Below, piece after piece: positions 18,031 to 61,447 of a stretch of DNA of 64,000 bases. How positions within the stretch are numbered: the first letter of the stretch is position 1; each line of letters opens with the position of its first letter. The stretch is from assembly GCA_049580385.1 (NCBI GenBank), contig JBAUPV010000006.1, positions 64,529 through 128,528 on the forward strand, given 5' to 3'. The notes under the pieces are model-generated. The model did not search any database, had not been told where the DNA came from, and worked only from the letters and a program-made list of their open reading frames with translations. Source of the DNA: Desulfobaccales bacterium (lineage in GTDB: Bacteria; Desulfobacterota; Desulfobaccia; Desulfobaccales; 0-14-0-80-60-11). A program made the position numbers and the translations under genes.

Positions 18031-18058
18031 CTTTTTTACTTTTTACTTTTTACTTTTG
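18031..18058. repeat. heptamer tandem array TTTTTAC x about 4
   Basis: cttttttactttttactttttactttt, immediately 3' of the dnaB stop. Confidence 0.85.
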
Positions 18059-18064
18059 CCTTTC

Positions 18065-19468
18065 TCAATACCCCGCCGGGGCCTCTTCCCGCTCAAAGGC
18101 GCCGAAGGTGGTGTATTTGGCCCGAAAGTTGAGCTTGATCTTGCCGGTGGGGCCGTTCCGCTGCTTGCCGATAATAACCTCCGCGGTGCCCTGGTCCGGG
18201 GAGTCTTCCCGGTAGACTTCGTCCCGGTAGATGAAGAGGACCACGTCGGCATCCTGCTCGATGGCCCCGGATTCACGCAAGTCCGCCAGTTGCGGCCGCT
18301 TGTTGGGCCGATCCTCCACCTTGCGGTTAAGCTGGGAGAGCACGATGACCGGCACCTTCAGCTCCTTGGCCAGGGCCTTCAACGACCGGGAAATCTCCGA
18401 GATCTCCTGCTCCCGGCTGTGCACGTCGGCCCGGCCGCGCATGAGCTGCAGGTAGTCGATGATCAGCATATGCAGTTTGCCGTCCGCCTTGAGCCTACGG
18501 GCCTTGGCCCGGATGTCGAGAACGGTGGCCGCCGGGGTGTCGTCGATGTAGATGGGGCAATCGAGGAGATTACCCGCAGCGGTCTGTAGGTTGGCCCATT
18601 CCATGGTGCTCAGGAAGGCCCGGCGCAGGTTGGAGGCGTCCACCTCGCCGACGCTGGAGAGCAGCCGCCGCACCAACTGCTCCCTGGACATCTCCAGGGA
18701 GAAGAAGGCCACATGCTTCTGAGGCTTGTAGGCGGCGTTGTAGGCGATGTTCAGGGCCAGGGCGGTCTTGCCCATGCTGGGGCGGGCGGCGATGATAATC
18801 AGGTCGCTGTCCTGGAAGCCCGCGGTGAGGTGGTCCAGGTCTTTGAAGCCACTTTCCACCCCGGTGATCCGGCTAATATCCCGGTGCCAGATGGCCTCCA
18901 GATTGGAGATCTCCTTTTCCACCAGGGCTGACAAGGGCTGGAAGCCCAGGCGCACCTTGGACTCGGCCACCTCGAAGATCTTCTGCTCGGCGGCGTCCAG
19001 AAACTCGGCGACATCCTCCACCGGTCCAAAACAGGCGCCGGCGATCTCCTGGGTGGTGTCCAGCAGGCGGCGCAACACCGCCTTGTCGTGCACCAGGCCG
19101 GCATAATAGTCGGCGTTGGTGGCGAATCCCACCTGCTCGCTCAGACCCGCCAGGAAGACCGGCCCCCCCACTCCTTCCAACTGCCCCCGTTCAGCCAGGA
19201 GGGCGCTGACGGTCACCAGGTCCACCGGATCACCCCGGCCGTAGAGATCCAGCATGGCCTGAAAGATTCTGCCGTGGGCCTCCCGGTAAAAGTCGCCGGC
19301 CCCGATCAGATCGGCCACCCGGTCCAGCACCTCCGGCCGCACCAGGATGGCCCCCAGGACCGATTGCTCCGCCTCGGCACTGGCCGGAGGGGTAAAGCCG
19401 CCGGGGTGGGCGGCTGCCGCCGGGGCCGCGGCCATTCGTTGGGCGTTGCGCCGAAGGCTTCCAGGCAT
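18065..19468 (-). CDS. dnaB: replicative DNA helicase DnaB
   Basis: PPASAEAEQSVLGAIL..., Walker A ARPSMGKT, and IIDYLQLM...SRSLKALAKELKVPVIVLSQLNR. Confidence 0.95.
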   Translation of the reverse strand: MPGSLRRNAQRMAAAPAAAAHPGGFTPPASAEAEQSVLGAILVRPEVLDRVADLIGAGDFYREAHGRIFQAMLDLYGRGDPVDLVTVSALLAERGQLEGVGGPVFLAGLSEQVGFATNADYYAGLVHDKAVLRRLLDTTQEIAGACFGPVEDVAEFLDAAEQKIFEVAESKVRLGFQPLSALVEKEISNLEAIWHRDISRITGVESGFKDLDHLTAGFQDSDLIIIAARPSMGKTALALNIAYNAAYKPQKHVAFFSLEMSREQLVRRLLSSVGEVDASNLRRAFLSTMEWANLQTAAGNLLDCPIYIDDTPAATVLDIRAKARRLKADGKLHMLIIDYLQLMRGRADVHSREQEISEISRSLKALAKELKVPVIVLSQLNRKVEDRPNKRPQLADLRESGAIEQDADVVLFIYRDEVYREDSPDQGTAEVIIGKQRNGPTGKIKLNFRAKYTTFGAFEREEAPAGY

Positions 19469-19690
19469 GGTGGCTCTCCAGGGTGCAAGAAGGGTTCTCT
19501 GCTGATAACTATCTGAATTACAAAGATAATTAATCGGTCAGTTACAGGGGTGCTCTGTTGGCATCATACCGAAAACCCGGCTGGATTGCAAATGGGGGAT
19601 GGCGTTACCTTGAAGTTTTTTGTTAGAGGAAGGAAGGTTAAAGGTTTGGAATCAGGTTAACGTTCTACAAAAAATTGAGTGATCTTCCCA

Positions 19691-19800
19691 GGGCGCACAG
19701 GCGAGACGCCTGGGCCACCAGGGGGAAATTAACTGTAGCCGCAGGCTTGAGCCTGCGCAAGCTAAACTTGCGGCTACCAAAGGCTAAAGCCTGCGGCTAC
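19691..19800. repeat. mosaic GC-rich hairpin repeat cluster
   Basis: gggcgcacaggcgagacgcctgggccacc, then gtagccgcaggcttgagcctgcgcaagctaaacttgcggctaccaaaggctaaagcctgcggctac. Confidence 0.8.
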
Positions 19801-19838
19801 CTTGGAAAGGCAATCTAGTTAAGGTCCTGATTAAAAAG

Positions 19839-20288
19839 CTATTCTGCCTCGGCCACCACGGCCACGGTGATTTCGGTCTTGACTTCCGGGGCCAGGCGGA
19901 CGGGGACCTGGTAGCTGCCCAGCTTTTTAATAGGCTCCGGCAGGTCCAATTGCCTGCGGTCGATATTGAAGCCTTGGGCCTCCAGCGCCGTGATGATCAT
20001 GGCCGCGGTCACCGACCCGTAAAGGCGCTCTCCCTCTCCCACCCGCTGGGCAATGGTGACGCTCACCCCTTCCAGTTGGGCGAGATTGGCCAAAGCGGAT
20101 TCCTGCTCCTTGGCCCGGAGTTCGGCATAGCGGGCTTTAACCTGTTCCACCTGGGCCAGGTTGCCCCGGGTGGCTTCCAGGGCCAGACCCTGGGGAATCA
20201 GGTAATTTCTGGCATAGCCCCGGGCCACCTCCACCACGGAGCCAATTTCACCCAGGGCGACAACGTCTTTCGTCAGAATGACTTTCAA
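19839..20288 (-). CDS. rplI: 50S ribosomal protein L9
   Basis: (M)KVILTKDVVALGEIGSVVEVARGYARNYLIPQGLA. TTG start at 20288 with GGAGGAGG 8 nt upstream. The longer track ORF (to 20483) has a non-L9 N-terminus. Confidence 0.85.
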   Translation of the reverse strand: MKVILTKDVVALGEIGSVVEVARGYARNYLIPQGLALEATRGNLAQVEQVKARYAELRAKEQESALANLAQLEGVSVTIAQRVGEGERLYGSVTAAMIITALEAQGFNIDRRQLDLPEPIKKLGSYQVPVRLAPEVKTEITVAVVAEAE

Positions 20289-21524: not shown

Positions 21525-21527
21525 GGC

Positions 21528-23003: not shown

Positions 23004-23048
23004 CCCTCACTGCTCACTGCTCACCGCTCACTGCTCACAGCTCACTGC
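23004..23048. repeat. heptamer tandem array TGCTCAC x6
   Basis: cctcac tgctcac tgctcac cgctcac tgctcac agctcac. It overlaps the last codons and the stop of nusB. Confidence 0.85.
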
Positions 23049-25256: not shown

Positions 25257-25279
25257 TACTTTAGGGTCCTGTTTTTTTT

Positions 25280-25346
25280 AGTAGTCAGTAGTCAGTAGTC
25301 AGTAAAAGCCATTGTTGTCTTAACTGGCTACTGGCTACTGGCTACT
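25280..25346. repeat. inverted pair of heptamer arrays (GTAGTCA x3 / GGCTACT x3)
   Basis: agtagtcagtagtcagtagtcagta ... actggctactggctactggctact. The arms are complementary except for one T/G position per unit. Confidence 0.85.
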
Positions 25347-25364
25347 TTCTTTAAGCTCACTGTA

Positions 25365-27168: not shown

Positions 27169-27182
27169 CTCCTGAAAGGCAG

Positions 27183-27201
27183 TTTTCGGTTTTCGGTTTT
27201 C
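27183..27201. repeat. heptamer array TTTTCGG x about 2.5
   Basis: ttttcggttttcggttttc. Confidence 0.6.
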
Positions 27202-28564: not shown

Positions 28565-28633
28565 TTGTTTGTTTTTTCCTTTTTCTTTTTACTTTTTTTT
28601 TTTACTTTTTACTTTTTACTTTTTACTTTTTTC
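28565..28633. repeat. T-rich tract with TTTTTAC heptamer array
   Basis: ttgtttgttttttcctttttctttttactttttttttttactttttactttttactttttactttttt, between lpxB and the upstream oxidoreductase gene. Confidence 0.8.
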
Positions 28634-30716: not shown

Positions 30717-30832
30717 GTTTCCGGTTTCCAGTTTTCGGTTTTCGGTAAAAAGAAAAAAGGGGCTGGGGAGACACTCTCCCGAGCCCTTTTCGTTATTCCA
30801 GTTATAATCTTTTACCGAAAACCGGAAACCGC
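30717..30832. repeat. inverted heptamer arrays (TTTCCGG/TTTTCGG vs CCGAAAA) enclosing a terminator hairpin
   Basis: tttccggtttccagttttcggttttcggtaaaa ... ttttaccgaaaaccggaaaccg. Confidence 0.85.
30751..30795. terminator. bidirectional intrinsic terminator between convergent ilvE and the CBS gene
   Basis: An A-run, then GGGGCTGGGGAGA-cac-TCTCCCGAGCCC (30759-30786, one mismatch), then TTTT. Confidence 0.7.
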
Positions 30833-41510: not shown

Positions 41511-41556
41511 CTGCTACTGCTCCCTGCTCACTGCTTACTGCTCACCGCTCACTGCC
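41511..41556. repeat. heptamer tandem array TGCTCAC x6 (degenerate)
   Basis: ctgctac tgctccc tgctcac tgcttac tgctcac cgctcac, between convergent hisI and folD. Confidence 0.8.
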
Positions 41557-42659: not shown

Positions 42660-43889
42660 GTGTCTTTGATCGTCCAAAAATATGGCGGCACTTCGGTGGC
42701 CAACCTGGATCGCATCGCCAACGTGGCCAACCGGGTGATCAAAGGCTGGCGAGACGGCAACAAAATGGTGGTGGTGTTGAGCGCCATGGCTGGCGAAACC
42801 GACCGCCTCATCAAGTTGGGCCAGGGGCTGGCGGAAGACCCCGACCCCCGGGAATTGGACGTCCTGTTGGCCACCGGCGAGCAGGTTACCGTCTCTCTGT
42901 TCAGCATTTTCCTGCACTCCCAGGGAGTGCCGGCCACCTCGCTCTTAAGCCACCAGGCCCGCATCTACACCGACCGGGCTTACGGCCGGGCTCGTATCCT
43001 GGGGATCGACACGGCCCGCATCAGAGAGGAGTTGAAGAAGAACCGGGTGGTAACCGTGGCCGGTTTCCAGGGGGTGGATGAAGTGGGCAACATCACCACC
43101 CTGGGCAGGGGCGGCTCCGACACCACCGCGGTGGCCATGGCCGCGGCCCTGAAGGCCGACTGCTGCGAAATTTATACGGATGTGGACGGGGTTTACACCG
43201 CCGATCCCCGCATCTGCCCCAAGGCCCGGAAGCTGGACCGGATCACTTACGACGAAATGCTGGAGATGGCTTCCCTGGGCGCCAAGGTCCTGGAGATCCG
43301 CTCCGTCGGGTTTGCCAGGCGGTACAGCGTACCCCTGGTGGTGCGCAGCAGCTTCACCGAGACGCCGGGCACTATGGTGACCGTGGAGGATGAAGAAATG
43401 GAAATTGTGCCGGTATCCGGCGTGGCTTTGAGTAGAAACGACGCCCGGGTCACCATCACCCGGGTCCCCGACCGCCCCGGCATCGCGGTGCGCCTCTTCC
43501 GGCCGGTAGCCGACGCCAACATCGTGGTGGATATGATCATCCAGAACACCAGCATAGAGGGCTTCACTGATCTGACCTTCACCGTGCCCGAAGGCGACTT
43601 GAAGAAGACCATGGAGCTGATCCGGCCGGTGGCCACCGAGGTCGGCGCCCAGCAGGTGGTGGGCAACAAAAATATCGCCAAGATCTCCATCGTGGGGGTG
43701 GGCATGAAGAACAACGCCGGGGTGGCGGCCCGGATGTTCGAGGCCCTGTCCGGGGAAAACATCAATATCCTGATGATCAGCACCTCGGAAATCAAGATTT
43801 CCTGCGTCATCGAGGACAAGTACGGCGAACTGGCGGTGCGGGTCCTCCACGACGCCTTCGATCTGGGGCAGCCGCCGCCGGAACGTTAG
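42660..43889 (+). CDS. lysC: aspartate kinase
   Basis: (M)SLIVQKYGGTSVANLDRI...VVVLSAMAGETDRL...TLGRGGSDTTAVA, plus two C-terminal ACT domains. GTG start. Confidence 0.95.
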   Translation: MSLIVQKYGGTSVANLDRIANVANRVIKGWRDGNKMVVVLSAMAGETDRLIKLGQGLAEDPDPRELDVLLATGEQVTVSLFSIFLHSQGVPATSLLSHQARIYTDRAYGRARILGIDTARIREELKKNRVVTVAGFQGVDEVGNITTLGRGGSDTTAVAMAAALKADCCEIYTDVDGVYTADPRICPKARKLDRITYDEMLEMASLGAKVLEIRSVGFARRYSVPLVVRSSFTETPGTMVTVEDEEMEIVPVSGVALSRNDARVTITRVPDRPGIAVRLFRPVADANIVVDMIIQNTSIEGFTDLTFTVPEGDLKKTMELIRPVATEVGAQQVVGNKNIAKISIVGVGMKNNAGVAARMFEALSGENINILMISTSEIKISCVIEDKYGELAVRVLHDAFDLGQPPPER

Positions 43890-44090
43890 TTCAAGGTTCA
43901 AAGTTCAAAGTTTGTTTCTTGGGGACCTGAACTCATCCTTTAACCTTGAACCTTTAACTTGAGAACTCTGCAAAGGCTCCTTTTTTTGTCATTCTGAGGG
44001 AGCGAAGCGACCGCAGAATCTCAAAAACACTGACAAGGTTGGTTTTCGCAGAAGTCTTAGCCTTGAACTTTGAACTTTGAACTGAGGAAC
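43888..44090. repeat. inverted heptamer arrays (GTTCAAA vs TTTGAAC) enclosing further hairpins
   Basis: agttcaa ggttcaa agttcaa (43888-43908) ... cttgaac tttgaac tttgaac (44062-44082). The interior contains the hairpin attctgagggagcgaagcgaccgcagaat. Confidence 0.85.
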
Positions 44091-47835: not shown

Positions 47836-47877
47836 TAGCTGACTGCTGATAGCTGATAGCTGATAGCTGATAGCTGA
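47836..47877. repeat. heptamer tandem array TAGCTGA x6
   Basis: tagctga ctgctga tagctga tagctga tagctga tagctga, ending 3 nt from the trxB stop. Confidence 0.9.
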
Positions 47878-50375: not shown

Positions 50376-50381
50376 CGCCGC

Positions 50382-51002: not shown

Positions 51003-51017
51003 CCTCTCCTTACTCGC

Positions 51018-52088: not shown

Positions 52089-52238
52089 CCGGCCTAACAC
52101 TAGGCTCCCGGAGATGAAAAAATTTCATCATTAAGTTGACCTGAACGGCGCCATGGTCTTTAATGTCTGGAAGGCCAACGTCCCTAGCGACCGGATCAAA
52201 TATCGGGTGCGCCATAAGTCCTGAGAGGAGCTGAGGCG

Positions 52239-53081
52239 ATGGAGATCAAGTTTTGGGGGACCCGGGGCTCAATTCCCGCCCCCGGCGCTGATACCCTGCA
52301 GTTCGGGGGCAACACCACCTGTGTGGAAGTCTTGCTGAATAGCGGCAGACGCCTCGTCATCGACGGCGGCACCGGCCTGCGCCTTCTGGGGAGACATTTG
52401 CTGGAGGCCGGCGCTCCCGTCAAAATCCACTTGCTCCTCACTCATGGCCATTGGGACCACCTTCTGGGCATCCCCTTCTTTCTTCCCATTTACCAGGAAA
52501 CCACCGAGATCCTGGTGGACGGTTGGCCGCCGGCCTTTCAGGCCATGACCCGGGTCTTCGACAGCAACCTGGGGGACGGCTTTTTCCCGGTGGCCTTCGA
52601 AAACCTTAAGGCCCGCATCGACTTTCTCAACCGCCTGGCGCATGGGACCCTGGACGTGGACGGGGTCCGCATTGACGCCATTCACACCAACCATCCCCAG
52701 GGGGGCTTCGGTTTCCGCTTCCGGGAGGGAGACCGTTCCCTGGTCTTTATCACCGACAACGAGCTGGGGACCGACGGGGGCCGGAGGCTTCCGGAATTTG
52801 CAGAATTCGCCCGGGACTGCGACCTGCTGATCCATGACGCCCAATTCCTGCCTTCCGATATGTCTGAGCACCAGGGTTGGGGCCACTCCACCTACGAGCA
52901 GGCAGTGAATCTGGCCCAAATGGCGGGGGCCCGCAGCCTGATCCTGACCCACCACGATCCCAGCCGCACCGACGCCGGGGAGGAAGAGATCATCGCCAAG
53001 GCTCGGAAACTGGCCTCCGTTGGTACAAAACTTCTCTATATCGACGCTGCCCGGGAAGGGGCCATATTCCGCCTGCCTTGA
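52239..53081 (+). CDS. MBL-fold metallo-hydrolase
   Basis: MEIKFWGTRGSIP...IDGGTG...LLLTHGHWDHLLG...ILTHHDP. Confidence 0.75.
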   Translation: MEIKFWGTRGSIPAPGADTLQFGGNTTCVEVLLNSGRRLVIDGGTGLRLLGRHLLEAGAPVKIHLLLTHGHWDHLLGIPFFLPIYQETTEILVDGWPPAFQAMTRVFDSNLGDGFFPVAFENLKARIDFLNRLAHGTLDVDGVRIDAIHTNHPQGGFGFRFREGDRSLVFITDNELGTDGGRRLPEFAEFARDCDLLIHDAQFLPSDMSEHQGWGHSTYEQAVNLAQMAGARSLILTHHDPSRTDAGEEEIIAKARKLASVGTKLLYIDAAREGAIFRLP

Positions 53082-53084
53082 AGA

Positions 53085-53300
53085 CGCGTTTCCAGATTTA
53101 GAATTTCGGTAAGAGGGCCTTTAGTGGCAAAGACTTCCAGCCTGTGTCCGGACATCTGGGGCGGGCTGTGCCCCCGGCTTTTGGCGGCCACAGGCCGCAT
53201 TATTTCAAGGATTTCGGTTTTCGGTAGGAGCCTCTGGGGCCGTTGGCAAGCAGATGAGGATTCCTGGCGGGCACAGGCGTCTAACCTGTGCGGTGCTGGC
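53085..53300. repeat. mosaic cluster: degenerate TTTTCGG heptamers plus GC hairpin units
   Basis: gggcctttagtggcaaagacttccagcctgtgtccg (53115-53150) is 34/36 identical to the reverse complement of 61123-61158. Also present: ggcggccacaggccgc, atttcggttttcggtagg and ggcgggcacaggcgtctaacctgtgcgg. Confidence 0.8.
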
Positions 53301-53487
53301 TCAAGCTATTAGCCTACCGCTGCCAGCTTTGAGCTATAGCCCCGGTAATTCTCCTTCTATTTTCTTTTGGGTAGGTTTTTGGTAAACTTAGTCCAACCGA
53401 TTGCCAATATTAGGATTTTGGCGCTCTTGGCGATGCTTTCTACCTGCTTTGACATCCCGATTTTCCAGGAGCGGACCCGGGTGTTCA

Positions 53488-54057
53488 ATGGATAATGCCA
53501 GCAGTCAGCGCTCGGACCGCAACCTGGTCCTCATCGGTTACCGGGCCACTGGGAAGACCTCGGTGGGCGCCAAGCTGGCGCGGCTCCTAAAGCGTCCCTT
53601 CGTGGACCTCGACCGGGTGCTGGTTGGAGAAGCCGGCCAGTCGGTGGCCGAAATCGTGGCCCGGGGCGGTTGGGACGAATTCCGGCGGCGGGAGAAGGAG
53701 CTGGTGGCTCGCTACCACCGGCGCCGGGGCCAGGTGCTGGCAACCGGCGGCGGCGTGATTCTGGATCTGGAAAACGTGGGGAAATTAAAAGAAAATGGGG
53801 TCCTAATCTGGCTTAAGGCCGATCCCAAGACCATCCGGGAGCGCCTGGCGCAGGACCAAGCACAGGTGTCTAATCGTCCCAGTCTCACCCCGGATGACTA
53901 TCTGACTGAGGTGGAACGAGTGCTCGCGGAACGGCAATCTCTCTACCGGAAGGCCGCGGACCTGGAAATCGACACCGCCGGCCTCGGCATCTCCCAGGTC
54001 GCCGATCTGATCCTGGCGGCCACCCGGCCTCTCGGAGTCGCAGCCCATGGCGGGTAA
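53488..54057 (+). CDS. aroK: shikimate kinase
   Basis: [31 protein letters not shown]...ATGGGVIL. I chose the ATG at 53488. Confidence 0.9.
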
Positions 54058-55099
54058 CACCTTTGGCCAGACATTTCGGGTCACCACCTGGGGCGAGTCC
54101 CACGGGCCGGCCCTGGGCGCGGTCATTGACGGCTGTCCCCCCCGGCTGCCTTTGAGCGCCGGAGATATCCAACTGGAGTTGGAGAGGCGCCGTCCGGGGG
54201 TCCAGGACCACGCGACACCGCGGCAAGAGCCCGATCAAGTGGAAATCCTCTCCGGCGTCTTTGAGGGCCGCACCACCGGCACCCCCATCAGCCTCATCGT
54301 TTACAACCGGGACGTCAGGAGCCAGGACTACGACGCCCTGCGGGAGGTCTTCCGCCCCGGCCACGGCGACTTCACCTTTCAGGCCAAATACGGCATCCGG
54401 GACCACCGGGGCGGGGGCCGGGCCTCAGCCCGGGAAACCGTAGCCCGGGTGGCTGCGGGAACCGTGGCCCAGAAGGTTCTGGATCGGGACCAGATCCGGG
54501 TGCTGGCCTATACCCTGGAACTGGGCGGCATCCGGGCCGAAAGGATAGACGAGGCCGGCATCTGGGATAACCCCTTCTTTTGCCCGGACCCGGAGGTGGT
54601 GCCGGCCATGGCCGCCCGGGTGCAGGAAGTCAAGGCCCGGGGAGACTCCCTGGGCGGCCTGGTGCAGGTGCGGGTCCAGGGTTGCCCCCCTGGCCTGGGC
54701 GAGCCGGTCTTTGACAAGCTGGACGCCATCCTGGCCCAGGCGGTGATGTCCGTGGGTGCGGTGAAAGGGGTGGAGATCGGCGCCGGTTTCGAGGCGGCCC
54801 GCCTGCTGGGTTCGGAACACAACGATCCCCTGATCCCCGGAGGCTTCGCCTCCAACCGGGCCGGCGGCATCCTGGCGGGCATCAGCACCGGTGACGACCT
54901 GGTGGTCACCGCCGCGGTCAAACCCATTTCCTCCATCGCCCGGAAGCAGCAGACCGTTGACCTGGAGGGCCGGCCCCGCACCATCTCCGTGGGCGGCCGC
55001 CACGACATCAGCGCTATTCCCCGCATCGTCCCGGTGATCCTGGCCATGGTGCGCCTTACCCTGGCGGATTTCCTGCTGCGCCAGAGGGCCATCTCATGA
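54047..55099 (+). CDS. aroC: chorismate synthase
   Basis: [32 protein letters not shown]...RPGHGDFT...[10 protein letters not shown]...GGRHD. Confidence 0.95.
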
Positions 55100-55857
55100 C
55101 CGTAAAGATCGGCCTGATCGGGGGCCGCGGCCAGATGGGCCGCTGGTTCCAGCACTTCTTCGCCTCCCAGGGCCTGGAAGTGCTGGTGGCGGACCTGGAT
55201 ACGGAGCAGACTTCCCAGGAAGTGGCCAGTCTCTCCGACGTGGTGATGCTGGCCGTGCCCATTCCCGAGGTAGCCAAGACCGCCCGGGCCCTGGCCCCTC
55301 ATCTCCAGCCCCAGGCCGCCTTGATGGACCTGACTTCGGTTAAACAGGCCCCCATGGACGCCATGATGGCCCACTTCCCGGGGGAAGTGGTGGGAACCCA
55401 CCCCCTTTTCGGTCCCCTCGCCACAGACATCGCCGGCCAAACCGTGGTCCTCTGCCCTGGCCGGGGGGAGCGCTGGTTCAACTGGCTGAGCGATCTCCTT
55501 ACCAACGCCGGGGCCCGGGTGAAGATCACCACCGCCAAAGAACACGACCGCCTCATGTCCGTGGTCCAGGGCCTGGCTCATTTCAGCCTCATCGCTCTGG
55601 AGATGGCTATCCGGGAACTGGGGATGGCTCCCCAGGACCTGGAGGATTTTGCCACCCCCACGTTTTCTACCATGCACCACCTGGCCCGGCGCCTCTTCAC
55701 CCAGGACGCCAAGCTCTATGCCTGCATCCAACTGCAGAACCCCGCCAACCGGGCGGCGCTGCGGGCCCTGGAAGACGCGGTGGCCGATATCCTCTATTTT
55801 ATCCAGCGCCAAAACGCCGACGGCCTGGTTAAACTCATCGAGAGCATCAGTAAGTAA
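55096..55857 (+). CDS. tyrA: prephenate dehydrogenase
   Basis: [15 protein letters not shown]...LTSVK...VGTHPLFGP...[15 protein letters not shown]. It overlaps the aroC stop (ATGA). Confidence 0.85.
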
Positions 55858-55969
55858 AGGCAAAAGTAAAAAGTAAAAAGGCAAAATAAAAGCAAAAAAC
55901 TACCAAAAGCAAAAAAAAACCAGATTTTTTTTCTTTTTACTTTTTACTTTTTACTTTTTCCTTTTTTTT
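55854..55969. repeat. inverted heptamer arrays GTAAAAA / TTTTTAC (A-rich arm, T-rich arm)
   Basis: gtaaaggcaaaagtaaaaagtaaaaaggcaaaataaaagcaaaaaa... / ...ttttttttctttttactttttactttttactttttcc, between tyrA and serS. Confidence 0.85.
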
Positions 55970-55978
55970 GGGGGAATT

Positions 55979-57262
55979 ATGCTCGACCTGAAATTTGTCC
56001 GGGGCCATCTACCGGAAGTGGAACAGGCCATGAAAAACCGGGGGCTGAAGGTCTCCCTGGCTGACTTTCTCCACCACGAAGGCGAACGCCGCCGTCTGCT
56101 GACCCGGGAAGAGGAACTGCGGCGCCAGCGCAATAGCCTGTCTCAGGAAATCGGGGTCCTCATCAAGAAGGGAGCAGAGGAAGAGGCCAAGGTCCTTAGA
56201 GTCAGGGTGGCGGTGATCAATGAGGATATCCGTGACCTGGAGGCCGGGGCGGAGCAACACGACGCCTGGGTGCGGGATTTTCTCCTGACCTTGCCCAACC
56301 TGCCGCACGCCTCTGTGCCCCTGGGCGCCTCAAGCGATGACAACCCGGTGGTCAAAACCTGGGGCAAGCCCCCCGCCTTCGCTTTCCCCGCCCGGCCCCA
56401 TTGGGAGATCGGGGAAGCCCTGGGAATTCTCGATTTCGAGCGGGCCGCCAAGATCACCGGCGCTCGCTTCGCCCTGCTCTGGGGCGCCGGCGCGGCCCTG
56501 GAGCGGGCCCTCATCAACTTCATGCTGGACCTGCACACCCGCCGGCACGGCTATCTGGAGACGCTGCCCCCCTTCATGACCAACGCCGATTCCATGCGGG
56601 CAACCGGCCAACTCCCCAAGTTCCGGGATGACCTCTTCAAGCTGGAGGGCTGGGACTATTTCCTGGTACCCACCGCCGAGGTGCCGGTGACCAACATTCA
56701 CCGGGACGAAATCCTCCCGGCCGAAAACCTGCCGCTGCGTTACACTGCCTATACTCCCTGCTTCCGCTCCGAGGCCGGCTCCCATGGCAAGGACGTCCGG
56801 GGCCTGATCCGCCAGCACCAGTTTGACAAGGTGGAGTTGGTGAAATTCACCACTCCCGAAACTTCCTACGAGGAGCTGGAGGGCCTGCGTGGGGATGCGG
56901 AAATGGTCCTCCAGGAATTGGGGCTCCCTTACCGGGTGGTGGAATTGTGCACCGGAGACCTGGGCTTCGCCGCGGCCAAGACCTACGACCTCGAGGTCTG
57001 GCTGCCGGGCCAGGGGCTCTACCGGGAGATCTCCTCCTGCAGCAACTTTGAGGACTACCAGGCCCGGCGCGCCGCCATCCGCCTGCGCCGCCCCGGGGCC
57101 AAAGGCACCGAGCTGGTCCACACCCTGAATGGCTCCGGCCTGGCCGTGGGCCGCACCCTGGTGGCCATCCTGGAAAACTATCAGCGTGAGGACGGCACCG
57201 TCCTGATTCCTGAAAAGCTGCGACCTTACCTACACGGGATGGAGAAAATCGGTAAGCAGTGA
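55979..57262 (+). CDS. serS: seryl-tRNA synthetase
   Basis: MLDLKFVR N-terminal coiled coil and class II motifs ([43 protein letters not shown]). Confidence 0.95.
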
Positions 57263-57546
57263 GCGGTGAGCAGTGAGCGGTAATTCACGAGCCTTTGGCT
57301 CACCCGAAACGATGAAAAATCTGCACCTTTCGGAACAGGTAGCCATAGGGCGGCCCGTGGCCGCCAATCAGAAGCCGGATGGGCTTCATTCATCCCGGCG
57401 GCCACGGGCCGCCCTATAAAAGGTGAACAGGCGAGACGCCTGCGCCACTGATGCCTAAGTATTTTTTGAGACAGGTTTGATTATCGATAAGTTTTTCTGC
57501 TCACTGCTCACCGCTCACTGCTCACTGGCTACTGTTTACTGCTCAC
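57252..57546. repeat. composite element: GTGAGCA x4 array, three GC hairpin units, then TGCTCAC x7 array in inverted orientation
   Basis: 57252-57281 gtaagca gtgagcg gtgagca gtgagcg. Interior units: agggcggcccgtggccgcc, ggcggccacgggccgccctata, acaggcgagacgcctgcgccac. 57498-57546 holds seven TGCTCAC-type units. Confidence 0.85.
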
Positions 57547-58766
57547 TTCGTCGCCCGCACCCGGTCGTTGGCATTGAAGGGGCCGCCGTTCAGCGCGGTA
57601 GCCTCCGCCCCGGTATTCCCTATCAGGTCCGTCACCTTTACTTCCCCCTGGGTCACGTCGGAGGTGTATCCCAGGACGGCGCCGGTGGTGGGGTTAACCA
57701 CCTCTTTGCCCGGGACCACCACCTTCAGGACGTCTCCCACCTTGAGGCCGGTGTTCTGCCCCATGTTGAGATAAACCTTGCCGTTTTTGACAAAATCGAC
57801 CCGGCCAAACCAGCTGATGTTCATCAGATCGCCGCCCACCCGCAGGGAGTTGTCCTTGGCGAACTTGTCCGCCGCCTCGGCGTTCACGGCGCCGGTAACG
57901 GAGCTGGCTAAGGATTCCTCCTTGACCCCGGTAAACGTGTCGTAAACCTGCAGGGCCATGGCCGCCGGCTGGCCTTGCGAAGGCGGCACGATGCCGGTCA
58001 GCACTATGCCCTGCACCCCCAGGATGTCACCCAGGGCCTTGATGTTGGGCGCCTGGCTCACCTTCCCAATGAGCGCCGCCTTGCCCAGGGCCTCCTTGAC
58101 CGCGCTCGCGTCCGCCACGCGGATGTCCTTGCCCCGCCCCAGGGATTCCCCGAGCGTCACGGCCAGGGTGCGGTTGACGCCGTCATAACTGGAGGGCGTA
58201 TCCAGGTCGGGGATAACCGCCACGGAGCGCCCCGGATACGGGCCCTTGGCTCCTCCCGCCTGGGACATATAGCCGCTCACCCCCTGTTCCCGGAGGATGC
58301 GGTCCACCTCGGCCTTCACCAGTTCCTGCAGCTGATCAGGAGGAAGACTCTTGCCCTGGGCCTGCGCTTGTTGCTTAGTAACAGCCTTGGCCAGGGATTG
58401 GACCAGGTAATCCTGCATGGTGTGGAATTCCTTGCCCTTCTCCACGTAGACATATTCCGGCTGATTCGGGTAGGTAAGCCAGTAGGGATTCTTGCTGCGG
58501 ACATAAGGCTTGCCGTCGATCATCACCGTCTCTTGCTGGGATTCAGGGGGGACGGTCTCAACCGCCGCCTCTTCTTTTTCTTCACTGGGATATCCCGCCC
58601 AAGTCTTCATCTTCTCCCAACTGGTGCTGCAGCCCATAAAGACGGGGGCCGAAAAAGCCAGAAACAGGAGTGCCGATAGCAGGCCGCCAATTGACTTCCT
58701 GAAAAGCGGGTTTCCGGTTTTCGGTTTTCGGTTTTCGGTAAAATCCAAGAGGTTCTTTAACATCAT
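57543..58766 (-). CDS. lipoprotein of unknown function
   Basis: Signal peptide plus lipobox LLSALLFLAFSAPVFMGC. The N-terminus (DFTENRKPKTGNP) is encoded by a CCGAAAA heptamer array, so the start is uncertain. The stop lies inside the GTGAGCA array. Confidence 0.5.
   Translation of the reverse strand: MMLKNLLDFTENRKPKTGNPLFRKSIGGLLSALLFLAFSAPVFMGCSTSWEKMKTWAGYPSEEKEEAAVETVPPESQQETVMIDGKPYVRSKNPYWLTYPNQPEYVYVEKGKEFHTMQDYLVQSLAKAVTKQQAQAQGKSLPPDQLQELVKAEVDRILREQGVSGYMSQAGGAKGPYPGRSVAVIPDLDTPSSYDGVNRTLAVTLGESLGRGKDIRVADASAVKEALGKAALIGKVSQAPNIKALGDILGVQGIVLTGIVPPSQGQPAAMALQVYDTFTGVKEESLASSVTGAVNAEAADKFAKDNSLRVGGDLMNISWFGRVDFVKNGKVYLNMGQNTGLKVGDVLKVVVPGKEVVNPTTGAVLGYTSDVTQGEVKVTDLIGNTGAEATALNGGPFNANDRVRATK
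58709..58742. repeat. heptamer array TTTCCGG/TTTTCGG x about 5
   Basis: gtttccggttttcggttttcggttttcggtaaaa. Confidence 0.85.
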
Positions 58767-58898
58767 ATTATCCCTTTATTATTCTTTGATTTAAGATTTC
58801 GATTTTCGATAAAAAAGAATAAAGAATTCCTTGAAGACATGATCACCGCGGCAACGCTCTAAACTTCCCAAACGGCAAGGTTTCCAGCAAGACCCTAA

Positions 58899-58922
58899 CC
58901 GCAAACCGGAAACCGAAAACCA
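58899..58922. repeat. heptamer array CCGAAAA-type x about 3
   Basis: ccgcaaaccggaaaccgaaaacc. Confidence 0.8.
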
Positions 58923-58925
58923 TCT

Positions 58926-59291
58926 TTACGATATCCCTTTCGCTAGTCCCTTGATCATCTTCCTGGTCCTGTCGAGAGTGGCCAGAAACGGATTTAAATC
59001 CTCCTGGGTCAGGTAATCTATTTCTTTGGCAATTATCAGTTGGGTTTCTAACTCAGCTATCGAGCCCAAACTGATAGCTAGAAATTGCTTGAATTCTTTG
59101 GCCGAATTCCGGCCCTGGCCTTCAGCAATATTGGAAGGAATAGATACTGCGGCTCTTCTCATCTGATTGGTCAAACCGAAATTCTCTGAAGGCGGAAACT
59201 TACTGGTCAGTTTATAAAGCTTCCCGGCAAGGTCTATGGATAACTTCCATACTTCCAAATCTTGAAACGATCTCGATTTCGTTTTGGTCAT
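58926..59291 (-). CDS. four-helix-bundle protein (23S rRNA intervening-sequence protein / bAvd-like family)
   Basis: FQDLEVWKLSIDLAGKLYKLTSKFP..E.FGLTNQMRRAAVSIPSNIAEGQGR.S.KEFKQFLAISLGSIAELETQL. A sampled line is about 40% GC. Confidence 0.8.
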   Translation of the reverse strand: MTKTKSRSFQDLEVWKLSIDLAGKLYKLTSKFPPSENFGLTNQMRRAAVSIPSNIAEGQGRNSAKEFKQFLAISLGSIAELETQLIIAKEIDYLTQEDLNPFLATLDRTRKMIKGLAKGIS

Positions 59292-59320
59292 TTGCCCCTG
59301 AACCGAAATACAATCTCAGG

Positions 59321-59356
59321 TTTTACCGAAAACCGAAAACCGGAAACCGAAAACCG
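59321..59356. repeat. heptamer array CCGAAAA x about 4.5
   Basis: ttttaccgaaaaccgaaaaccggaaaccgaaaaccg. Confidence 0.85.
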
Positions 59357-59424
59357 TCTTTAACAACAAAAAAGCCCACAGGGATATTACCCCGTGGGCT
59401 TTTGGAAGTCAACTAGCTTTTGGG

Positions 59425-60837
59425 TTAGAAGTAGAAATACCCGACGAACTCTACGCGGTGTTCGTCCCCCATCTTAGATGGCGATCCTGAGTTTCCTGAT
59501 GCTGACGCGATTGGATTCTGTGACTCCACGCCTGCTTGAGTGAAATAGGCGTTGGTCAGGTAGTCGGTGTGCACATAGGAATACTGCAGACCGAACTTGA
59601 GGGCCGCGATGGGCCGCCACCACAGGGTGGCGTCCACTTCCTGCTGGTCCTTCGTCTGAGCGTAGGGAGAGGTGTAAAAATACTCCCACCCCGTATTGGT
59701 CTCATACTTGGTGAAGCCGTAGGCGGCGTTCGCGTACCACTGGTTGGTGAAGTAGTACTGCAGTTCGCCGTAGGCGCCATACTGCCTCAGACATTCCTCG
59801 TTAACGGCGTGGCCGCGGTTGCTAAAATTGGCATCATACTTGAAGACGTTGGTGCCGTCGCCGGAAAGCCCGAAGGCATAGAGGTCTTGGCCGATAAACG
59901 GCACCGCGATGAAGTGCATGGTCCCGGCCAGGTTGTCGGTGTGGGTCGGGATGATCGGGATGAACAGAGAGCCCTGGATCTCCCAGGGTTGGAGATAGGT
60001 GTTGGCCCACGTTGCAGTGGAGGAGAACCCTTGGTAGTTCGTTAAAGAGTCGTTATAAGTAGTCCGCGAGACATTGCGCTGCCAGCCGCCGGTGACTTCC
60101 GCGGTGAAGCCCATGGGATGGCCGTAATAGGCGGCCTTGCCCCACAAGTCGGCCTGGTACTTGACTTGCCCATTGAGCTGGGGCGTTGCCGAGGCGTTGC
60201 CGCTGGTGTAACCAGTATTATAAGGATCCGCTGACGTCCCCTCGATAAACTGGGGATCGGCAATCGCACCGGCCAAACTCCAATGTCCACCCGCACCATC
60301 CATGAACCCCTGGGTAAAGCGGATCTGCGGGAGACGGTACCCGGAGGGGTCGCCGACGGCCAGGAAGGGGCCGTCTTGAGCAACTTCCGGGGTCCAATCG
60401 GCGAATAAGCTCCAGTACTGGCCGAACATCAGTTCGGTGTCCCCGGGCCAGTTCAAACGGAACATGGCGTGCCGCAAACGCGGGGTGTACGGGTTGCTGG
60501 TGCTGAAGGTTCCGGCACCAGTCGATACTCCAGTTTCAGAAGCGTTATTCTCGAAGTCCATTTCGAGGAAGCCGGTGAGCTTGGCTCCCAGGACGTCGGG
60601 CCCCTTGATGGTGAAGTTGAACCGGGAACCCATGGCCGTCATGCGGAAGTTGCCATGTTGGCCGTTGGGGTCGTTGTTGCGCGGGACGGGGCTATTCATG
60701 TAGGCGCCGTTCTGGGTGGAATCCCAGTAGGAATCCAACTTGATATAGCCGCCCAGGGTGAATTCGGTGGCGGCAAAGGCAGCCGCGGGCACCAGCAGGG
60801 ACAAGACTACTGCGAAGATCAAGATTTTTTTCATCAT
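59425..60837 (-). CDS. outer-membrane porin (beta-barrel)
   Basis: Signal peptide MMKKILIFAVVLSLLVPAAAFA. Alternating aromatic/Gly-rich beta-strand pattern. The C-terminus ends ...VEFVGYFYF. Confidence 0.65.
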   Translation of the reverse strand: MMKKILIFAVVLSLLVPAAAFAATEFTLGGYIKLDSYWDSTQNGAYMNSPVPRNNDPNGQHGNFRMTAMGSRFNFTIKGPDVLGAKLTGFLEMDFENNASETGVSTGAGTFSTSNPYTPRLRHAMFRLNWPGDTELMFGQYWSLFADWTPEVAQDGPFLAVGDPSGYRLPQIRFTQGFMDGAGGHWSLAGAIADPQFIEGTSADPYNTGYTSGNASATPQLNGQVKYQADLWGKAAYYGHPMGFTAEVTGGWQRNVSRTTYNDSLTNYQGFSSTATWANTYLQPWEIQGSLFIPIIPTHTDNLAGTMHFIAVPFIGQDLYAFGLSGDGTNVFKYDANFSNRGHAVNEECLRQYGAYGELQYYFTNQWYANAAYGFTKYETNTGWEYFYTSPYAQTKDQQEVDATLWWRPIAALKFGLQYSYVHTDYLTNAYFTQAGVESQNPIASASGNSGSPSKMGDEHRVEFVGYFYF

Positions 60838-61026
60838 TCCCCCCTTGTAATTTGGAAAGTAGGTTACCAGTTTCTCCTTTCCGTAAATGCCTAAATAGCT
60901 CTTTTAACTGACTTTATCCCACCTCCTTTCTCTCTCTCGGTTTTATCCAGCGCCATATTAGACTGGCCTACAATTTTTGTCAATAAAAAATTGCAAAAAA
61001 ATTGCACTCCCCTAAAGAGATGGTTA

Positions 61027-61447
61027 TGGTTCCGGTTTCCGGTTTCCGGTGGGGGGTCCCAGAAAAAATTAGGGCGGCCTGGGGCCGCCTAAAATCGGCG
61101 GACACAGCCCGCCCTATAACTGCGGACACAGGCTGGAAGCCTGTGCCACTAAAGGCCCTTTTTTTCCTCGTTCCCAGGATGGGAAAAAATGGTTTCCAGT
61201 TTTCGGTTTTCGGTTTTCGGTAAGGGGTCACGGCACCGGTTGGCGGGTGGCTGAACCTGCTTCCGGTGGCACAGGCGTCTCGCCTGGGCAGCGCCGATTA
61301 AAGCTTATAGAAGACTGGTTTGGTTTTCTGTCTCTGGTAGGGAGCTTTGTCCTTGATTTTGCCTTTGACTTCACCGAAAACCGAAAACCGGAAACCGAAA
61401 ACGGTCTTCTGACGGTCTTCTATTGGAAAAGCGAAAACCAGAAACTG
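61027..61447. repeat. large mosaic repeat region (heptamer arrays in both orientations plus GC hairpin units)
   Basis: ggttccggtttccggtttccgg; agggcggcctggggccgcct; ggcggacacagcccgccctata; cggacacaggctggaagcctgtgccactaaaggccc; tttccagttttcggttttcggttttcgg; ggtggcacaggcgtctcgcctggg; caccgaaaaccgaaaaccggaaaccgaaaac. Confidence 0.85.

Follow-up and report, generated by a model that had tools for sequence, protein, structure and literature searches.

Why do tandem repeats of unrelated sequence share a 7-nt unit and lie between genes? The question is raised by a 64,000-nt stretch of DNA (the window) from a 3.52-Mb Desulfobaccales MAG (94.6% complete; G+C content 59%; sulfate-reducer-type), for which a preliminary description had listed several such families.

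Heptamer arrays in the window and across the genome

Using Tandem Repeats Finder (TRF) followed by sequence view, we located the arrays in the window (Table 1). The heptamer arrays listed in the preliminary description are real, and nearly all were recovered by TRF; two of the listed sites, 53211 (~2 units) and 30811 (~2.7 units), are weak. Period-7 arrays have copy numbers of 2.9 to 8.7 and start at the first coordinate of each array, hairpin, and module in Table 1 as well as at 25323, 35872 (degenerate, with 75% matches), 43937, 44063, 55927, 57497, 61191, and 61373. Several extend into the 3' end of a gene, covering its final codons or its stop codon; serS is an example, with its stop codon inside the left arm of the 57250 module. 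Within the module at 43888..44083 lie a CCTTGAA x3.9 array and GTCATTCTGAGGGAGCGAAGCGACC, a dispersed element, and this design of array plus element recurs in at least 10 other places in the genome. At 61030..61402, the GGTTTTC and ACCGAAA arrays form an inverted pair 151 nt apart.

Table 1. Heptamer arrays and associated features in the window
Feature	Position	Strand	Context	Source
TTTTTAC x3.6 array	18033..18057		abuts 3' end of dnaB (18065-19468, minus)	TRF, sequence view
CTCACTG x6.1 array	23006..23048		at a gene end	TRF, sequence view
Hairpin, AGTAGTC x3.6 and ACTGGCT x3.4, 18-nt loop	25280..25346		separates two minus-strand genes	TRF
GTTTTCG x2.9 solo array	27182..27201		adjoins start codon	TRF, sequence view
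TTTTTAC x8.7 array	28573..28631		occupies gap downstream of lpxB	TRF, sequence view
GTTTCCG/GTTTTCG x4.3 and partner CCGAAAACCGGAAACCG	30717..30830		around terminator-like GC hairpin, convergent genes	TRF
CTGCTCA x6.6 array	41511..41555		at a gene end	TRF, sequence view
Module AGTTCAA x3.6 ... TTGAACT x3.0	43888..44083		immediately upstream of leuA-like gene at 44095	TRF
TAGCTGA x6.0 array	47836..47877		abuts gene end	TRF, sequence view
Hairpin AAAAGTA x4.4 ... TTTTTAC x5.7, 35-nt loop	55862..55966		occupies gap before serS ribosome-binding site	TRF
Gene-less module, arms GGTGAGC/AGTGAGC x4.6 and CTGCTCA x7.3	57250..57547		REP-like hairpins inside	
Outer arm GGTTTTC x4.4	58709..58739		pairs with 59325-59356 in fold	TRF, RNA fold
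Inner array AACCGAA x3.6	58897..58921		adjoins stop codon of four-helix-bundle gene	TRF
Four-helix-bundle protein gene, 121 aa, TIGR02436/NF008911	58926..59291	minus		NCBIfam, PDB
Other outer arm ACCGAAA x4.6	59325..59356			TRF, RNA fold
Three arrays TTCCGGT x3.0, GGTTTTC x4.4, ACCGAAA x4.3	61030..61402		interleaved with REP-like hairpins	TRF

In the whole genome, counting arrays with at least 3 copies, there are 592 arrays of period 7 as compared to 12, 136, 26, and 52 of periods 5, 6, 8, and 9, respectively. These period-7 arrays belong to 94 unit families. Based on crude gene calls made for this analysis, in which 80% of the sequence is coding, 483 (82%) of the 592 are mostly intergenic and 67 mostly "coding," and periods 3, 6, 9, and 12 map mostly to coding DNA. 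The arrays are heptamer arrays resembling STRRs (short tandemly repeated repetitive sequences), as had been proposed; period 7 is specifically enriched genome-wide, and the arrays are excluded from coding DNA. The preliminary description had named a lack of period-7 enrichment, or an equal spread over coding DNA, as speaking against it; the genome-wide check found an excess of period 7 and an unequal coding spread, and this objection therefore falls away. Arrays lie close to genes, with median distances of 7 nt to stop codons and 20 nt to start codons, and 162 of 279 arrays are located at most 10 nt from a stop codon. Array density is 0.85/kb in tandem, 0.72/kb in convergent, and 0.34/kb in divergent intergenic regions, and the neighboring genes are of all kinds.

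An alternative explanation is that the arrays are ordinary long microsatellites for which slippage works best with 7-nt units, that frameshifting units are purged from coding DNA, and that the gene cassettes described below land in, or recombine with, existing arrays. A polymerase-footprint idea, credited to Mrázek et al. 2007, reportedly makes slippage most efficient for 7-nt units. The mostly coding location of periods that are multiples of 3 fits this explanation, as does the period-7 excess reported for many unrelated bacteria (PMC4679880, PMC4692102). Moreover, copy numbers at orthologous arrays differ between this genome and G025, a genome of the same genus, in which the array at 18033 is shorter, the site at 23006 has ~4 copies, and the array at 28573 is degenerate. 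The differences extend beyond copy number: in G025, the 41511 site holds a short hairpin (CAGTGAG...CTGCTCA), the modules at 61030..61402 are rearranged, and the content of the intergenic region at 25280 is replaced by different arrays (GTTTTCT and ACTGCTT types). Neither the placement of arrays directly against stop codons and ribosome-binding sites nor their depletion in divergent regions is predicted by slippage, and we regard it as unlikely that microsatellite behavior accounts for the arrays, also in light of the pairing and gene association reported below.

Positions ~20 nt or less from start codons, or on stop codons, would suit sites for a host nucleic-acid-binding protein that sets translation or stability of the neighboring genes, the cassettes being incidental. 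At the DNA level, a global regulator would be a candidate; at the RNA level, cold-shock, S1, or CsrA-type proteins would be. Each CspB protein reportedly binds a single heptamer (PMC4679880), arrays of 4-5 heptamers in Geobacter metallireducens are annotated as predicted global-regulator sites (PMC2700814), and the typical length is narrow, with a median of 4.6 units for arrays beside four-helix-bundle genes. However, 94 unit families in one genome would call for many specificities or none, and genes of all kinds would have to be served. Also, the unit at one intergenic site differs between close relatives, with one case of whole replacement at 93% genome identity, which is poor conservation for a regulatory site. 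This explanation is, in our view, unlikely.

Inverted pairing and arm order

The preliminary description had stated that arrays often form inverted pairs. In agreement with this, 212 of 562 arrays (38%) have a reverse-complement partner (at least 17/21 matches) within 800 nt, compared to 23 and 27 (4-5%) in the reversed and complemented controls, and the possible stems are 25-35 bp. For ~60% of the arrays, no partner is detectable by this test. Within a family, the order of the two arms is constant in ~90% of cases (e.g., 28:2 for AAAGTTC and 27:4 for ACTGCTC), and it agrees with the order seen in this genome's six cassettes that carry the gene. Slippage predicts neither inverted partners nor a family-specific arm order. 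Mismatches between sense-strand arms gave no RNA-level signature (71 of the G.U type and 54 of the A.C type), nor do unit variants follow a mirrored order in the two arms.

Paired arrays could also act mainly as transcription terminators or as stabilizers of the 3' end of the upstream mRNA, with a U tract supplied by T-rich units; many arrays lie close to stop codons, and 13 pairs have gaps of <50 nt. A simple terminator role, which the preliminary description had listed among its candidates, fared poorly: a scan of 50000-64000 found terminator-like sites at 17 versus 16 expected, and the canonical terminator at 59370-59403 adjoins the cassette at 58709-59356 from the outside and is not made by it. 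Similarly, arrays enclose an ordinary terminator at 30750-30790, many pairs lie within one operon directly before a ribosome-binding site, and the structure is symmetric on both strands. We therefore consider a terminator or stabilizer function of these pairs very improbable.

Arrays bracket four-helix-bundle genes

The protein encoded at 58926-59291 matches TIGR02436 (E = 4e-38) and NF008911 (E = 4e-42) in NCBIfam and 2gsc (Xanthomonas XCC0516; E = 3e-24) in PDB, and belongs to the 23S rRNA intervening-sequence/S23p family, with a distant likeness to Avd. In the RNA fold of the cassette, a stem of ~34 bp closes around this gene. The gene-less module at 57250/57547 folds similarly, with a closing stem of ~30 bp (−157 kcal/mol; z = −10.2).

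This genome has seven TIGR02436 loci, three of them broken; arrays bracket every one, and the unit differs from locus to locus. By comparison, just 2.3% of the genes in the genome are flanked by arrays on both sides. Arrays also flank 30/30 loci in 30 genomes of Desulfobaccales, 25/27 further loci across the phylum, and 12/12 loci on plasmids of Cyanobacteria, Bacteroidota, Gemmatimonadota, and Alphaproteobacteria, where the sampled loci are the best TIGR02436 matches and not the whole family. Plasmid loci between cas6 and cas4, between cas10 and cmr3, and between ribonucleotide reductase subunits are, like many pairs in this genome, placed inside operons, which speaks against a terminator role. 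Among 63 intact ORFs pooled from Desulfobaccales and these plasmids, an array is located within 160 nt in 63/63 and on both sides in 53/63; of the 116 arrays concerned, 111 are of period 7. In 43 of 51 cassettes the arms complement each other with at most one mismatch, compared to 13% of shuffled pairings.

The unit follows the protein. A unit is shared (with at most one mismatch) by 100% of pairs with at least 80% protein identity and by 2-4% of pairs below 50%, and protein clade tracks unit even between two cassettes of one genome. The arms are of period 8 in some taxa, where this period travels with the gene. The copy on a Pseudanabaena plasmid has an AAAAGCT unit and, with a placement that the tree does not fix, falls beside Desulfobaccales rows of AGCT type; the other cyanobacterial copies group in a separate, well-supported clade of 45 rows. 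Slippage explains neither the near-universal bracketing of the four-helix-bundle gene, shown in four phyla, nor the agreement of protein clade with unit, nor the small shared repertoire of units: 39% of the arrays in this genome have a unit exactly as on cassettes in other Desulfobaccales (null, 6%).

The region of serS, a lipoprotein gene, and p470, which contains the 57250 site, supports the same point. Seven relatives (L015, L017, L023, L026, L033, L037, and L038) carry an array-bracketed four-helix-bundle gene there, whereas the seven relatives without the gene (L027, L028, L031, L032, L034, L039, and L043) have no arrays, unlike what a microsatellite landing site would predict. In L042 and in the window, the arrays are retained and the gene is absent. 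Of the mechanism offered in the preliminary description, slippage plus exclusion from coding DNA, the exclusion holds; the two together leave pairing, polarity, placement, divergent depletion, and TIGR02436 bracketing unexplained.

Probable arms of hairpin inserts and comparison with known systems

These observations argue that the heptamer arrays are probably the arms of IVS-like hairpin insertion modules in transcribed intergenic gaps, some with a gene and most without. In a complete module, an array X and its reverse complement enclose a payload. Full versions carry a gene of ~120 codons as the payload, encoding a TIGR02436 four-helix-bundle protein, a family originally discovered within 23S rRNA IVSs. 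Most copies in this genome are gene-less, with nothing but REP-like hairpins or a short loop inside, and many arrays are lone arms bordering an intergenic region. Both gene-less pairs and solo arrays would be derived from gene-carrying cassettes or maintained by the same process. In the transcript, the two arms may pair to form a duplex of 25-35 bp. By analogy to the IVS of Coxiella burnetii, RNase III, which is encoded in this genome, might cut this duplex; doing so would remove the insert from the mRNA of its host, so that operons could tolerate it. Copy number would subsequently be altered by replication slippage. A 7-nt unit may reflect binding of one unit per subunit of the ring-shaped protein encoded in the full modules.

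Against the insert model, as in favor of microsatellites, arrays far exceed genes (~576 arrays versus 7 four-helix-bundle loci), and array density relates weakly to the number of four-helix-bundle genes among 17 Desulfobaccales genomes: a single gene goes with 14 arrays per 100 kb in G007, and 19 matches go with 5.7 arrays per 100 kb in G006. For the large families AAAACAG (39 arrays) and AAACTCG (32 arrays), this 94.6%-complete assembly contains no copy with the gene, and neither a mobility enzyme nor a target duplication nor a clean empty site was seen. The three broken loci, the ~60% of arrays with no detectable partner, and the absence of an RNA-level signature likewise speak against the model. 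If the insert model holds, the excess of 7-base repeats in bacteria, long unexplained, would have an origin that can be tested.

The closest known system is the 23S rRNA IVS of Coxiella and Leptospira, in which a TIGR02436/PF05635 protein is likewise encoded inside a stem of terminal inverted repeats and the gene likewise decays (PMC4990558). The C. burnetii IVS, of the S23p gene family, has a 28-bp terminal stem with tandem GACAGAT heptamers, is cut by RNase III at the first repeat, and varies in heptamer number between strains (PMC4990558). Unlike these IVSs, the modules described here lie between protein-coding genes rather than in 23S rRNA helices, comprise hundreds of mostly gene-less arms, and have a separate heptamer unit for each cassette. 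MITEs and REP/REPIN elements are also short, non-coding, dispersed, intergenic, and hairpin-forming, with terminal inverted repeats and with copies that far outnumber the putative gene-carrying parent. In contrast to them, the arms here are tandem arrays with a sequence that varies by family, neither an internal transposase nor a target duplication was seen, and the sole associated gene encodes a four-helix-bundle protein without known enzymatic activity.

The heptamer excess itself is already known in print. According to PMC4679880 and PMC4692102, a general heptanucleotide excess among long simple-sequence repeats was described by Mrázek et al. 2007. The preliminary description knew of no such repeats in this kind of organism; for Desulfobaccales we likewise found nothing in the literature, but more broadly comparable arrays have been reported. 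The STRRs of heterocystous cyanobacteria also have 7-nt units in several unrelated families per genome, intergenic location, and variable copy number, and plasmids of Nostoc, Calothrix, and Anabaena carry the four-helix-bundle gene bracketed by heptamer arrays; the arrays described here differ in phylum, in a G+C content of 59%, in having units other than STRR1-3, and in the prominence of inverted pairing and fixed arm order. Arrays are also known from Beggiatoaceae and Bacteroidetes (PMC4679880). The TAACTGA repeats of marine Beggiatoaceae, also present in Cyanobacteria and Bacteroidetes, are 2-6-copy arrays a few nucleotides upstream of start codons; unlike the arrays here, they comprise a single unit, nearly always in direct rather than inverted sets, and were proposed to be translational regulator sites (PMC4679880).

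Within the accessible text of PMC2700814, G. metallireducens, then classed as a deltaproteobacterium, has tandem heptanucleotide/octanucleotide elements of 4-5 units, some in opposite-strand pairs. The GGGAATC repeats of Xanthomonas are intergenic (89-93%), near ORF ends, and form 70-75 convergent inverted pairs, as given in the available sections of PMC4692102. In the same portions of these two papers, one or few families, as opposed to the 94 here, are read as G-quadruplexes or regulator sites, and we found no link to a gene family. Xanthomonas campestris is the source of 2gsc, the PDB relative of the four-helix-bundle protein encoded in the window.

Period-7 arrays in the genome

We scanned the window (C6:64529-128528 of G000, the source genome) and the whole genome (assembly of 3.52 Mb in 31 contigs, ~59% G+C) with Tandem Repeats Finder (TRF); the genome-wide counts cover arrays of at least three copies. 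By relatives of its seryl-tRNA synthetase, the source genome belongs with MAGs of the Desulfobaccales (Thermodesulfobacteriota), and the closest of these relatives, with 96% amino-acid identity, include one on the closed chromosome OY969108.1; close MAGs came from Danish soil and sediment. TRF returned ~25 period-7 arrays with 2.9 to 8.7 copies in the window, confirming the heptamer arrays of the preliminary description; most of the sites listed there were recovered, while two are marginal (Table). At a genome-wide scale, 592 arrays had a period of 7, while 12, 136, 26, and 52 arrays had periods of 5, 6, 8, and 9, respectively. Counting intergenic arrays alone, the numbers were 483 for period 7 vs 23 and 15 for neighboring periods. 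Of the 592 period-7 arrays, 82% thus lie mainly in intergenic DNA and 67 mainly in coding DNA; the majority of arrays with periods 3, 6, 9, and 12 lie in coding DNA. The gene calls behind these assignments come from our own crude codon-usage filter and, because they span 80% of the genome, are somewhat incomplete. The preliminary description had named a lack of period-7 enrichment and an equal spread over coding DNA as the outcomes that would speak against it; neither was observed, and the period-7 observation holds, far beyond chance.

Sorted by unit, the period-7 arrays comprise 94 families, of which the largest are AAAGTTC (54 arrays), ACTGCTC (52), AAAACCG (50), AAAACAG (39), AAACTCG (32), and AAAAAGT (27), bearing out the earlier statement that several unrelated units coexist in one genome. 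An overabundance of tandem heptamers in the intergenic DNA of bacteria was reportedly first described in 1990, as the short tandemly repeated repetitive (STRR) sequences of cyanobacteria. STRR1 to STRR3 of heterocystous cyanobacteria have the units CCCCAGT, TTGGTCA, and CAACAGT. The arrays analyzed here are STRR-like in the broad sense that they consist of at least three head-to-tail 7-nt units. They are not cyanobacterial STRRs in the strict sense, as the host is a Desulfobaccales MAG and none of its common units matches STRR1 to STRR3.

The median distance from an array to a stop codon is 7 nt (≤10 nt in 162 of 279 arrays) and to a start codon 20 nt. The density of arrays is 0.85/kb in co-directional, 0.72/kb in convergent, and 0.34/kb in divergent intergenic regions. 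The proposal that the arrays act as intrinsic terminators, i.e., a GC-rich hairpin with a U tract downstream, was not supported: 17 such sites were found between 50000 and 64000 in the window vs 16.0 expected, and none of them is formed by the arrays.

Inverted arms and the gene that they enclose

We counted an array as having an inverted partner if its reverse complement matched at 17 or more of 21 positions no farther than 800 nt away. By this criterion, 212 of 562 arrays have a partner, compared with 23 and 27 in the reversed and complemented control queries, respectively, which agrees with the earlier observation of inverted pairs. The arrays are not simple microsatellites. Every family has its own constant arm order. 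In the AAAACCG family, the first half of the intergenic gap holds the CGGTTTT form and the second half the AAAACCG form (25:5), and the arm order is likewise kept in the AAAGTTC (28:2), ACTGCTC (27:4), ACTACTG (16:1), AGCTATC (10:0), and AAAGCTG (10:0) families. Because an inverted repeat reads identically on both strands, this order belongs to the module rather than to the direction of transcription.

Paired arms enclose short loops, dispersed hairpin elements (e.g., GTCATTCTGAGGGAGCGAAGCGACC, GGTGGGCAGTGCCCACCCTAC, and GTAGCCGCAGGCTTTAGCCTGCG), or a gene. In every case, GTCATTCTGAGGGAGCGAAGCGACC lies inside AGTTCAA...TTGAACT arms. We note that a dispersed element of ~35 nt, GTCATTCTGAGGGAGCGAAGCGACCGAAGAATCTC, with ~34 copies in the genome, was seen only within heptamer arms of this type, flanked by GAGACC/GGTCTC, and often as an inverted pair giving a long hairpin. 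In addition, several REP-like GC-rich hairpin families share the intergenic regions of the arrays, in the window as well as genome-wide; counted over both strands of the whole genome with a few mismatches allowed, GGCGGCCACAGGCCGCC, GGCACAGGCGTCTCGCCTG, GTAGCCGCAGGCTTTAGCCTGCG, and GGTGGGCAGTGCCCACCCTAC are present in ~68, ~119, ~104, and ~129 copies, respectively. The genome has two matches to Y1-transposases (PF01797), which could be RAYT-type partners. The window has no Rfam match at the gathering threshold.

In the window, the gene found between arms encodes a 121-aa protein; the E value of its match is 4e-38 for TIGR02436 ("four helix bundle protein") and 4e-42 for NF008911. Its closest solved relative is XCC0516 of Xanthomonas (PDB 2gsc; E 3e-24), the structure of which is cited as a toroidal homopentamer by Warrier et al. 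(PMC4990558). The genome contains seven TIGR02436 loci, of which three are interrupted or partial, and all seven are bracketed by heptamer arrays, mostly as inverted pairs and with a distinct unit at each locus (AAAACCG, ACTGGCT, AAAGTTC, AAAAAGT, ACTGCTC, AAAGCTG). Most modules lack the gene. The six cassettes with a gene, i.e., an array, the TIGR02436 gene, and the reverse complement of the array, have the same arm order as the gene-less arrays of the matching families.

We compared these modules with two other kinds of element. MITEs have terminal inverted repeats in common with an autonomous, transposase-encoding element and duplicate their target site. Here, inverted arms are common to gene-less arrays and gene-carrying cassettes; the cassette gene is not a known transposase, and the flanks inspected show no sign of a target duplication. 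In a diversity-generating retroelement, the protein would be the accessory protein Avd, a four-helix bundle encoded beside a reverse transcriptase and template/variable repeats. The Avd model gave 18 bits vs a cut-off of 80, and the lack of any RVT_1 match in the 94.6%-complete genome makes an origin from a reverse transcriptase unlikely.

Features of the window, with positions in the window
Position	Strand	Feature	Remark
6019-8395		Radical SAM/SPASM enzyme gene, then small ORFs	18-nt tandem repeats (TRF 7818, 8204)
17880-17990		REP-like hairpins	
23006-23048		TGA-bearing array	Provides final codons and stop of adjacent gene
25257-25364		AGTAGTC/ACTGGCT arrays	GTTTTCT and ACTGCTT types at the equivalent site of G025; entire content different
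30811		Marginal array	~2.7 units
43975-44040		GTCATTCTGAGGGAGCGAAGCGACCGAAGAATCTC	At least 10 other sites
53120-53290		REP-like hairpins	
53211		Marginal array	~2 units
57240-57560		Predicted stem	−157 kcal/mol, z = −10
57250-57262		TGA-bearing GTGAGCA array	serS terminates within it; provides final codons and stop
57250-57547		Paired arrays kept without the gene	
57340-57450		REP-like hairpins	
57543-58766	minus	Conserved syntenic gene flanking the cassette, 407 aa	No match in Pfam or NCBIfam
58690-59375		Predicted fold of sense strand	Outer arrays close a stem around the ORF
58926-59291	minus	TIGR02436 gene	
59425-60837	minus	Conserved syntenic gene flanking the cassette, 470 aa	No match in Pfam or NCBIfam
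61070-61300		REP-like hairpins	
61420-63189	minus	ORF, 589 aa	LytB/IspH domain and UbiA prenyltransferase-like C-terminal part

Arms and gene in other genomes

TIGR02436 is present in 57 of the 61 Desulfobaccales genomes searched; G006, a closed genome with 19 matches, has a cassette with arrays at 2,422,751. At 30 of 30 loci from 30 of these genomes, period-7 arrays lie directly beside the gene, and TRF gave 81 rows with period 7 at these loci and at most 3 with any other period. Using tblastn, we found that the window protein matched 40 records among 72,556 plasmids, including 16 from Nostoc, 4 from Calothrix, and others from further cyanobacteria, Riemerella, Gemmatirosa, and Azospirillum. 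In all 12 plasmid loci examined, the gene lies between short tandem arrays, of period 7 in nine and period 8 in three. Examples with period 7 are the cassettes of Nostoc edaphicum (AGTAGGG x7.9/TCCCTAC x4.9), Calothrix (AGGGTGT/CTACACC), Riemerella (GGTTTAA/TAAACCT), and Azospirillum (GAGGACG/GTCTTCT). The plasmid genes are often within operons. Cassettes lie inside CRISPR-Cas operons, in cas6/cas4 and cas10/cmr3 gaps, in Anabaena sp. 90 (locus L202), Pseudanabaena galeata (L205), and Picosynechococcus PCC 7003 (L206), and in N. edaphicum (L199) a cassette separates two ribonucleotide reductase subunit genes.

Each of the 63 pooled intact ORFs lies within 160 nt of an array, and 53 of them are flanked on both sides; as a baseline, arrays lie on both sides of 2.3% and on one side of 14% of the genes of the Desulfobaccales genome analyzed here. 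The arrays beside the pooled ORFs have period 7 in 111 of 116 cases, a median of 4.6 copies, and a median distance of 20 nt to the ORF. Allowing at most one mismatch per unit, the two arms of a cassette are complementary in 43 of 51 cases, compared with 13% when arms were paired across cassettes. Sampling of the phylum beyond the order gave arrays beside the gene at 25 of 27 loci (32 arrays of period 7, 7 of period 8, and 1 of period 9). These samples consist of the best-scoring members of the TIGR02436 family rather than the entire family; in them, arrays of this type bracket the gene in five or more phyla.

In the region around the window cassette (serS-lipoprotein-p470), which is syntenic in ~30 Desulfobaccales MAGs, cassettes are present at one or both intergenic sites, with units that vary by genome (GTCTTTG/AAGACCG, GGTTTTT/AAACCAA, TAGTTTT/AACTAAA, GTTTTCG/ACCGAAA, and others). 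Seven relatives without the gene in this region (L027, L028, L031, L032, L034, L039, and L043) are also without arrays there, while paired arrays are kept without it in L042 and at one site of the window (Table). Protein identity predicts the repeat unit: counting units within one mismatch as shared, 100% of pairs share the unit at ≥80% identity, 76% at 65-80%, 29% at 50-65%, and 2-4% below 50%. In the protein tree, AGCT-type, ACTGGCT-type, AAACTCG-type, and AAAACNG-type copies form separate groups. The Pseudanabaena plasmid copy (AAAAGCT unit) lies outside the well-supported clade of the other cyanobacterial copies and beside AGCT-type rows, a placement without resolution in the tree. Joint inheritance in related genomes accounts for much of the correlation between unit and protein. 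The correlation shows that the arms are part of the cassette and is not a demonstration of protein-repeat co-evolution. The units of 39% of the arrays in the source genome occur exactly on cassette arms of other Desulfobaccales vs 6% for letter-shuffled units, or 80% vs 45% if one mismatch is allowed.

In G025, a closed genome of the same genus with ~93% nucleotide identity over collinear genes, arrays occupy the same intergenic sites as in the window. At these sites, the copy number differs (e.g., CTCACTG with 6 copies in the window vs 4 in G025), as does the unit variant, and the payload at the serS site is 215 nt in the window vs ~480 nt in G025. Among 17 Desulfobaccales genomes, with 27-140 kb sampled from each, the density of period-7 arrays varies between 0 and 21 per 100 kb, with 16.8 for the source genome, and has a weak, noisy relation to the number of four-helix-bundle genes.

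Comparison with intervening sequences of 23S rRNA

The intervening sequence (IVS) in the 23S rRNA of Coxiella burnetii carries a decaying ORF of the same gene family, has a 28-bp terminal stem, and contains three tandem GACAGAT heptamers in strain-variable number; RNase III cleaves it in vitro at the first repeat (PMC4990558). Like IVSs with an ORF of the S23p family, the window locus encodes a PF05635/TIGR02436 protein and has terminal inverted repeats that give a long closing stem, ~28 bp in Coxiella and predicted to be ~34 bp around the ORF and ~30 bp at the gene-less module here. However, none of the loci examined is in a 23S rRNA helix; all are in the gaps between protein-coding genes or at the ends of such genes. 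Because of the predicted stems, the features of the Coxiella IVS, and the presence of an RNase III gene in the genome, the arrays are probably the arms of IVS-like modules residing in mRNA spacers instead of rRNA. From this comparison, we infer that transcribed arms would pair to form an RNase III-type duplex, by which the insert would be detached from the host message. Among 63 array pairs on the sense strand, we counted 71 G.T-type vs 54 A.C-type arm mismatches, which is no clear bias and, therefore, no sign that pairing is selected in RNA over DNA. The order of unit variants was not mirrored between arms (19.41 observed vs 19.27 in unit-permuted arms; 0 of 54 pairs notable), a comparison of low power at ~4 units per arm.

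Heptamer arrays have been published for other bacteria and, therefore, the arrays as such are of a known kind. In the passages available from these sources, the excess of heptamers among long simple repeats, together with the idea of polymerase-footprint slippage, is credited to Mrázek et al. 2007 (PMC4679880, PMC4692102); GGGAATC repeats of Xanthomonas are 89-93% intergenic, near ORF ends, and form 70-75 inverted pairs (PMC4692102); in Geobacter metallireducens, there are families with four or five heptanucleotides in tandem, of which some form pairs on opposite strands (PMC2700814); and TAACTGA repeats precede start codons in Beggiatoaceae (PMC4679880). The same passages, including those citing Mrázek et al., contain no link of arrays to a gene family. 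Within the full texts searched, which cover few subscription journals, none connects heptamer arrays genome-wide to the TIGR02436 family, and the only paper found to mention both is that on the Coxiella IVS (PMC4990558). The interpretation of the arrays as arms of IVS-like modules across protein-coding operons, with repertoire and polarity in common with the four-helix-bundle cassettes, was not found in this literature and is new in that sense.

The heptamer excess and ORF-bearing IVSs appear to be the same thing in this genome: the arrays share units, polarity, and placement with the cassette arms, and the gene is bracketed across phyla. To our knowledge, ORF-bearing 23S rRNA IVSs have been termed selfish elements and have no known way of moving, and we know of no accepted cause for them or for the intergenic heptamer excess. 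The question of why the period is 7 thereby becomes experimentally approachable through protein-array binding, cutting by RNase III, and change of the arrays with the presence of the gene. Tentatively, and with considerable doubt, we suggest that the TIGR02436 protein may be a sequence-specific partner of the arrays, with each clade recognizing its own unit and maintaining, spreading, or protecting arrays in trans, the hundreds of gene-less arms among them. In that case, one gene family would lie behind the STRR-type heptamer excess in Cyanobacteria, Xanthomonas, Geobacter, Bacteroidota, and the Desulfobaccales genome analyzed here, and the 7-nt period would be the footprint of one subunit. 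Hundreds of intergenic hairpins within operons are relevant for annotation and could alter mRNA processing and operon stoichiometry in these environmentally common anaerobes. Finally, we note that the 589-aa ORF near the end of the window could represent either a fusion or two separate genes that were called together.
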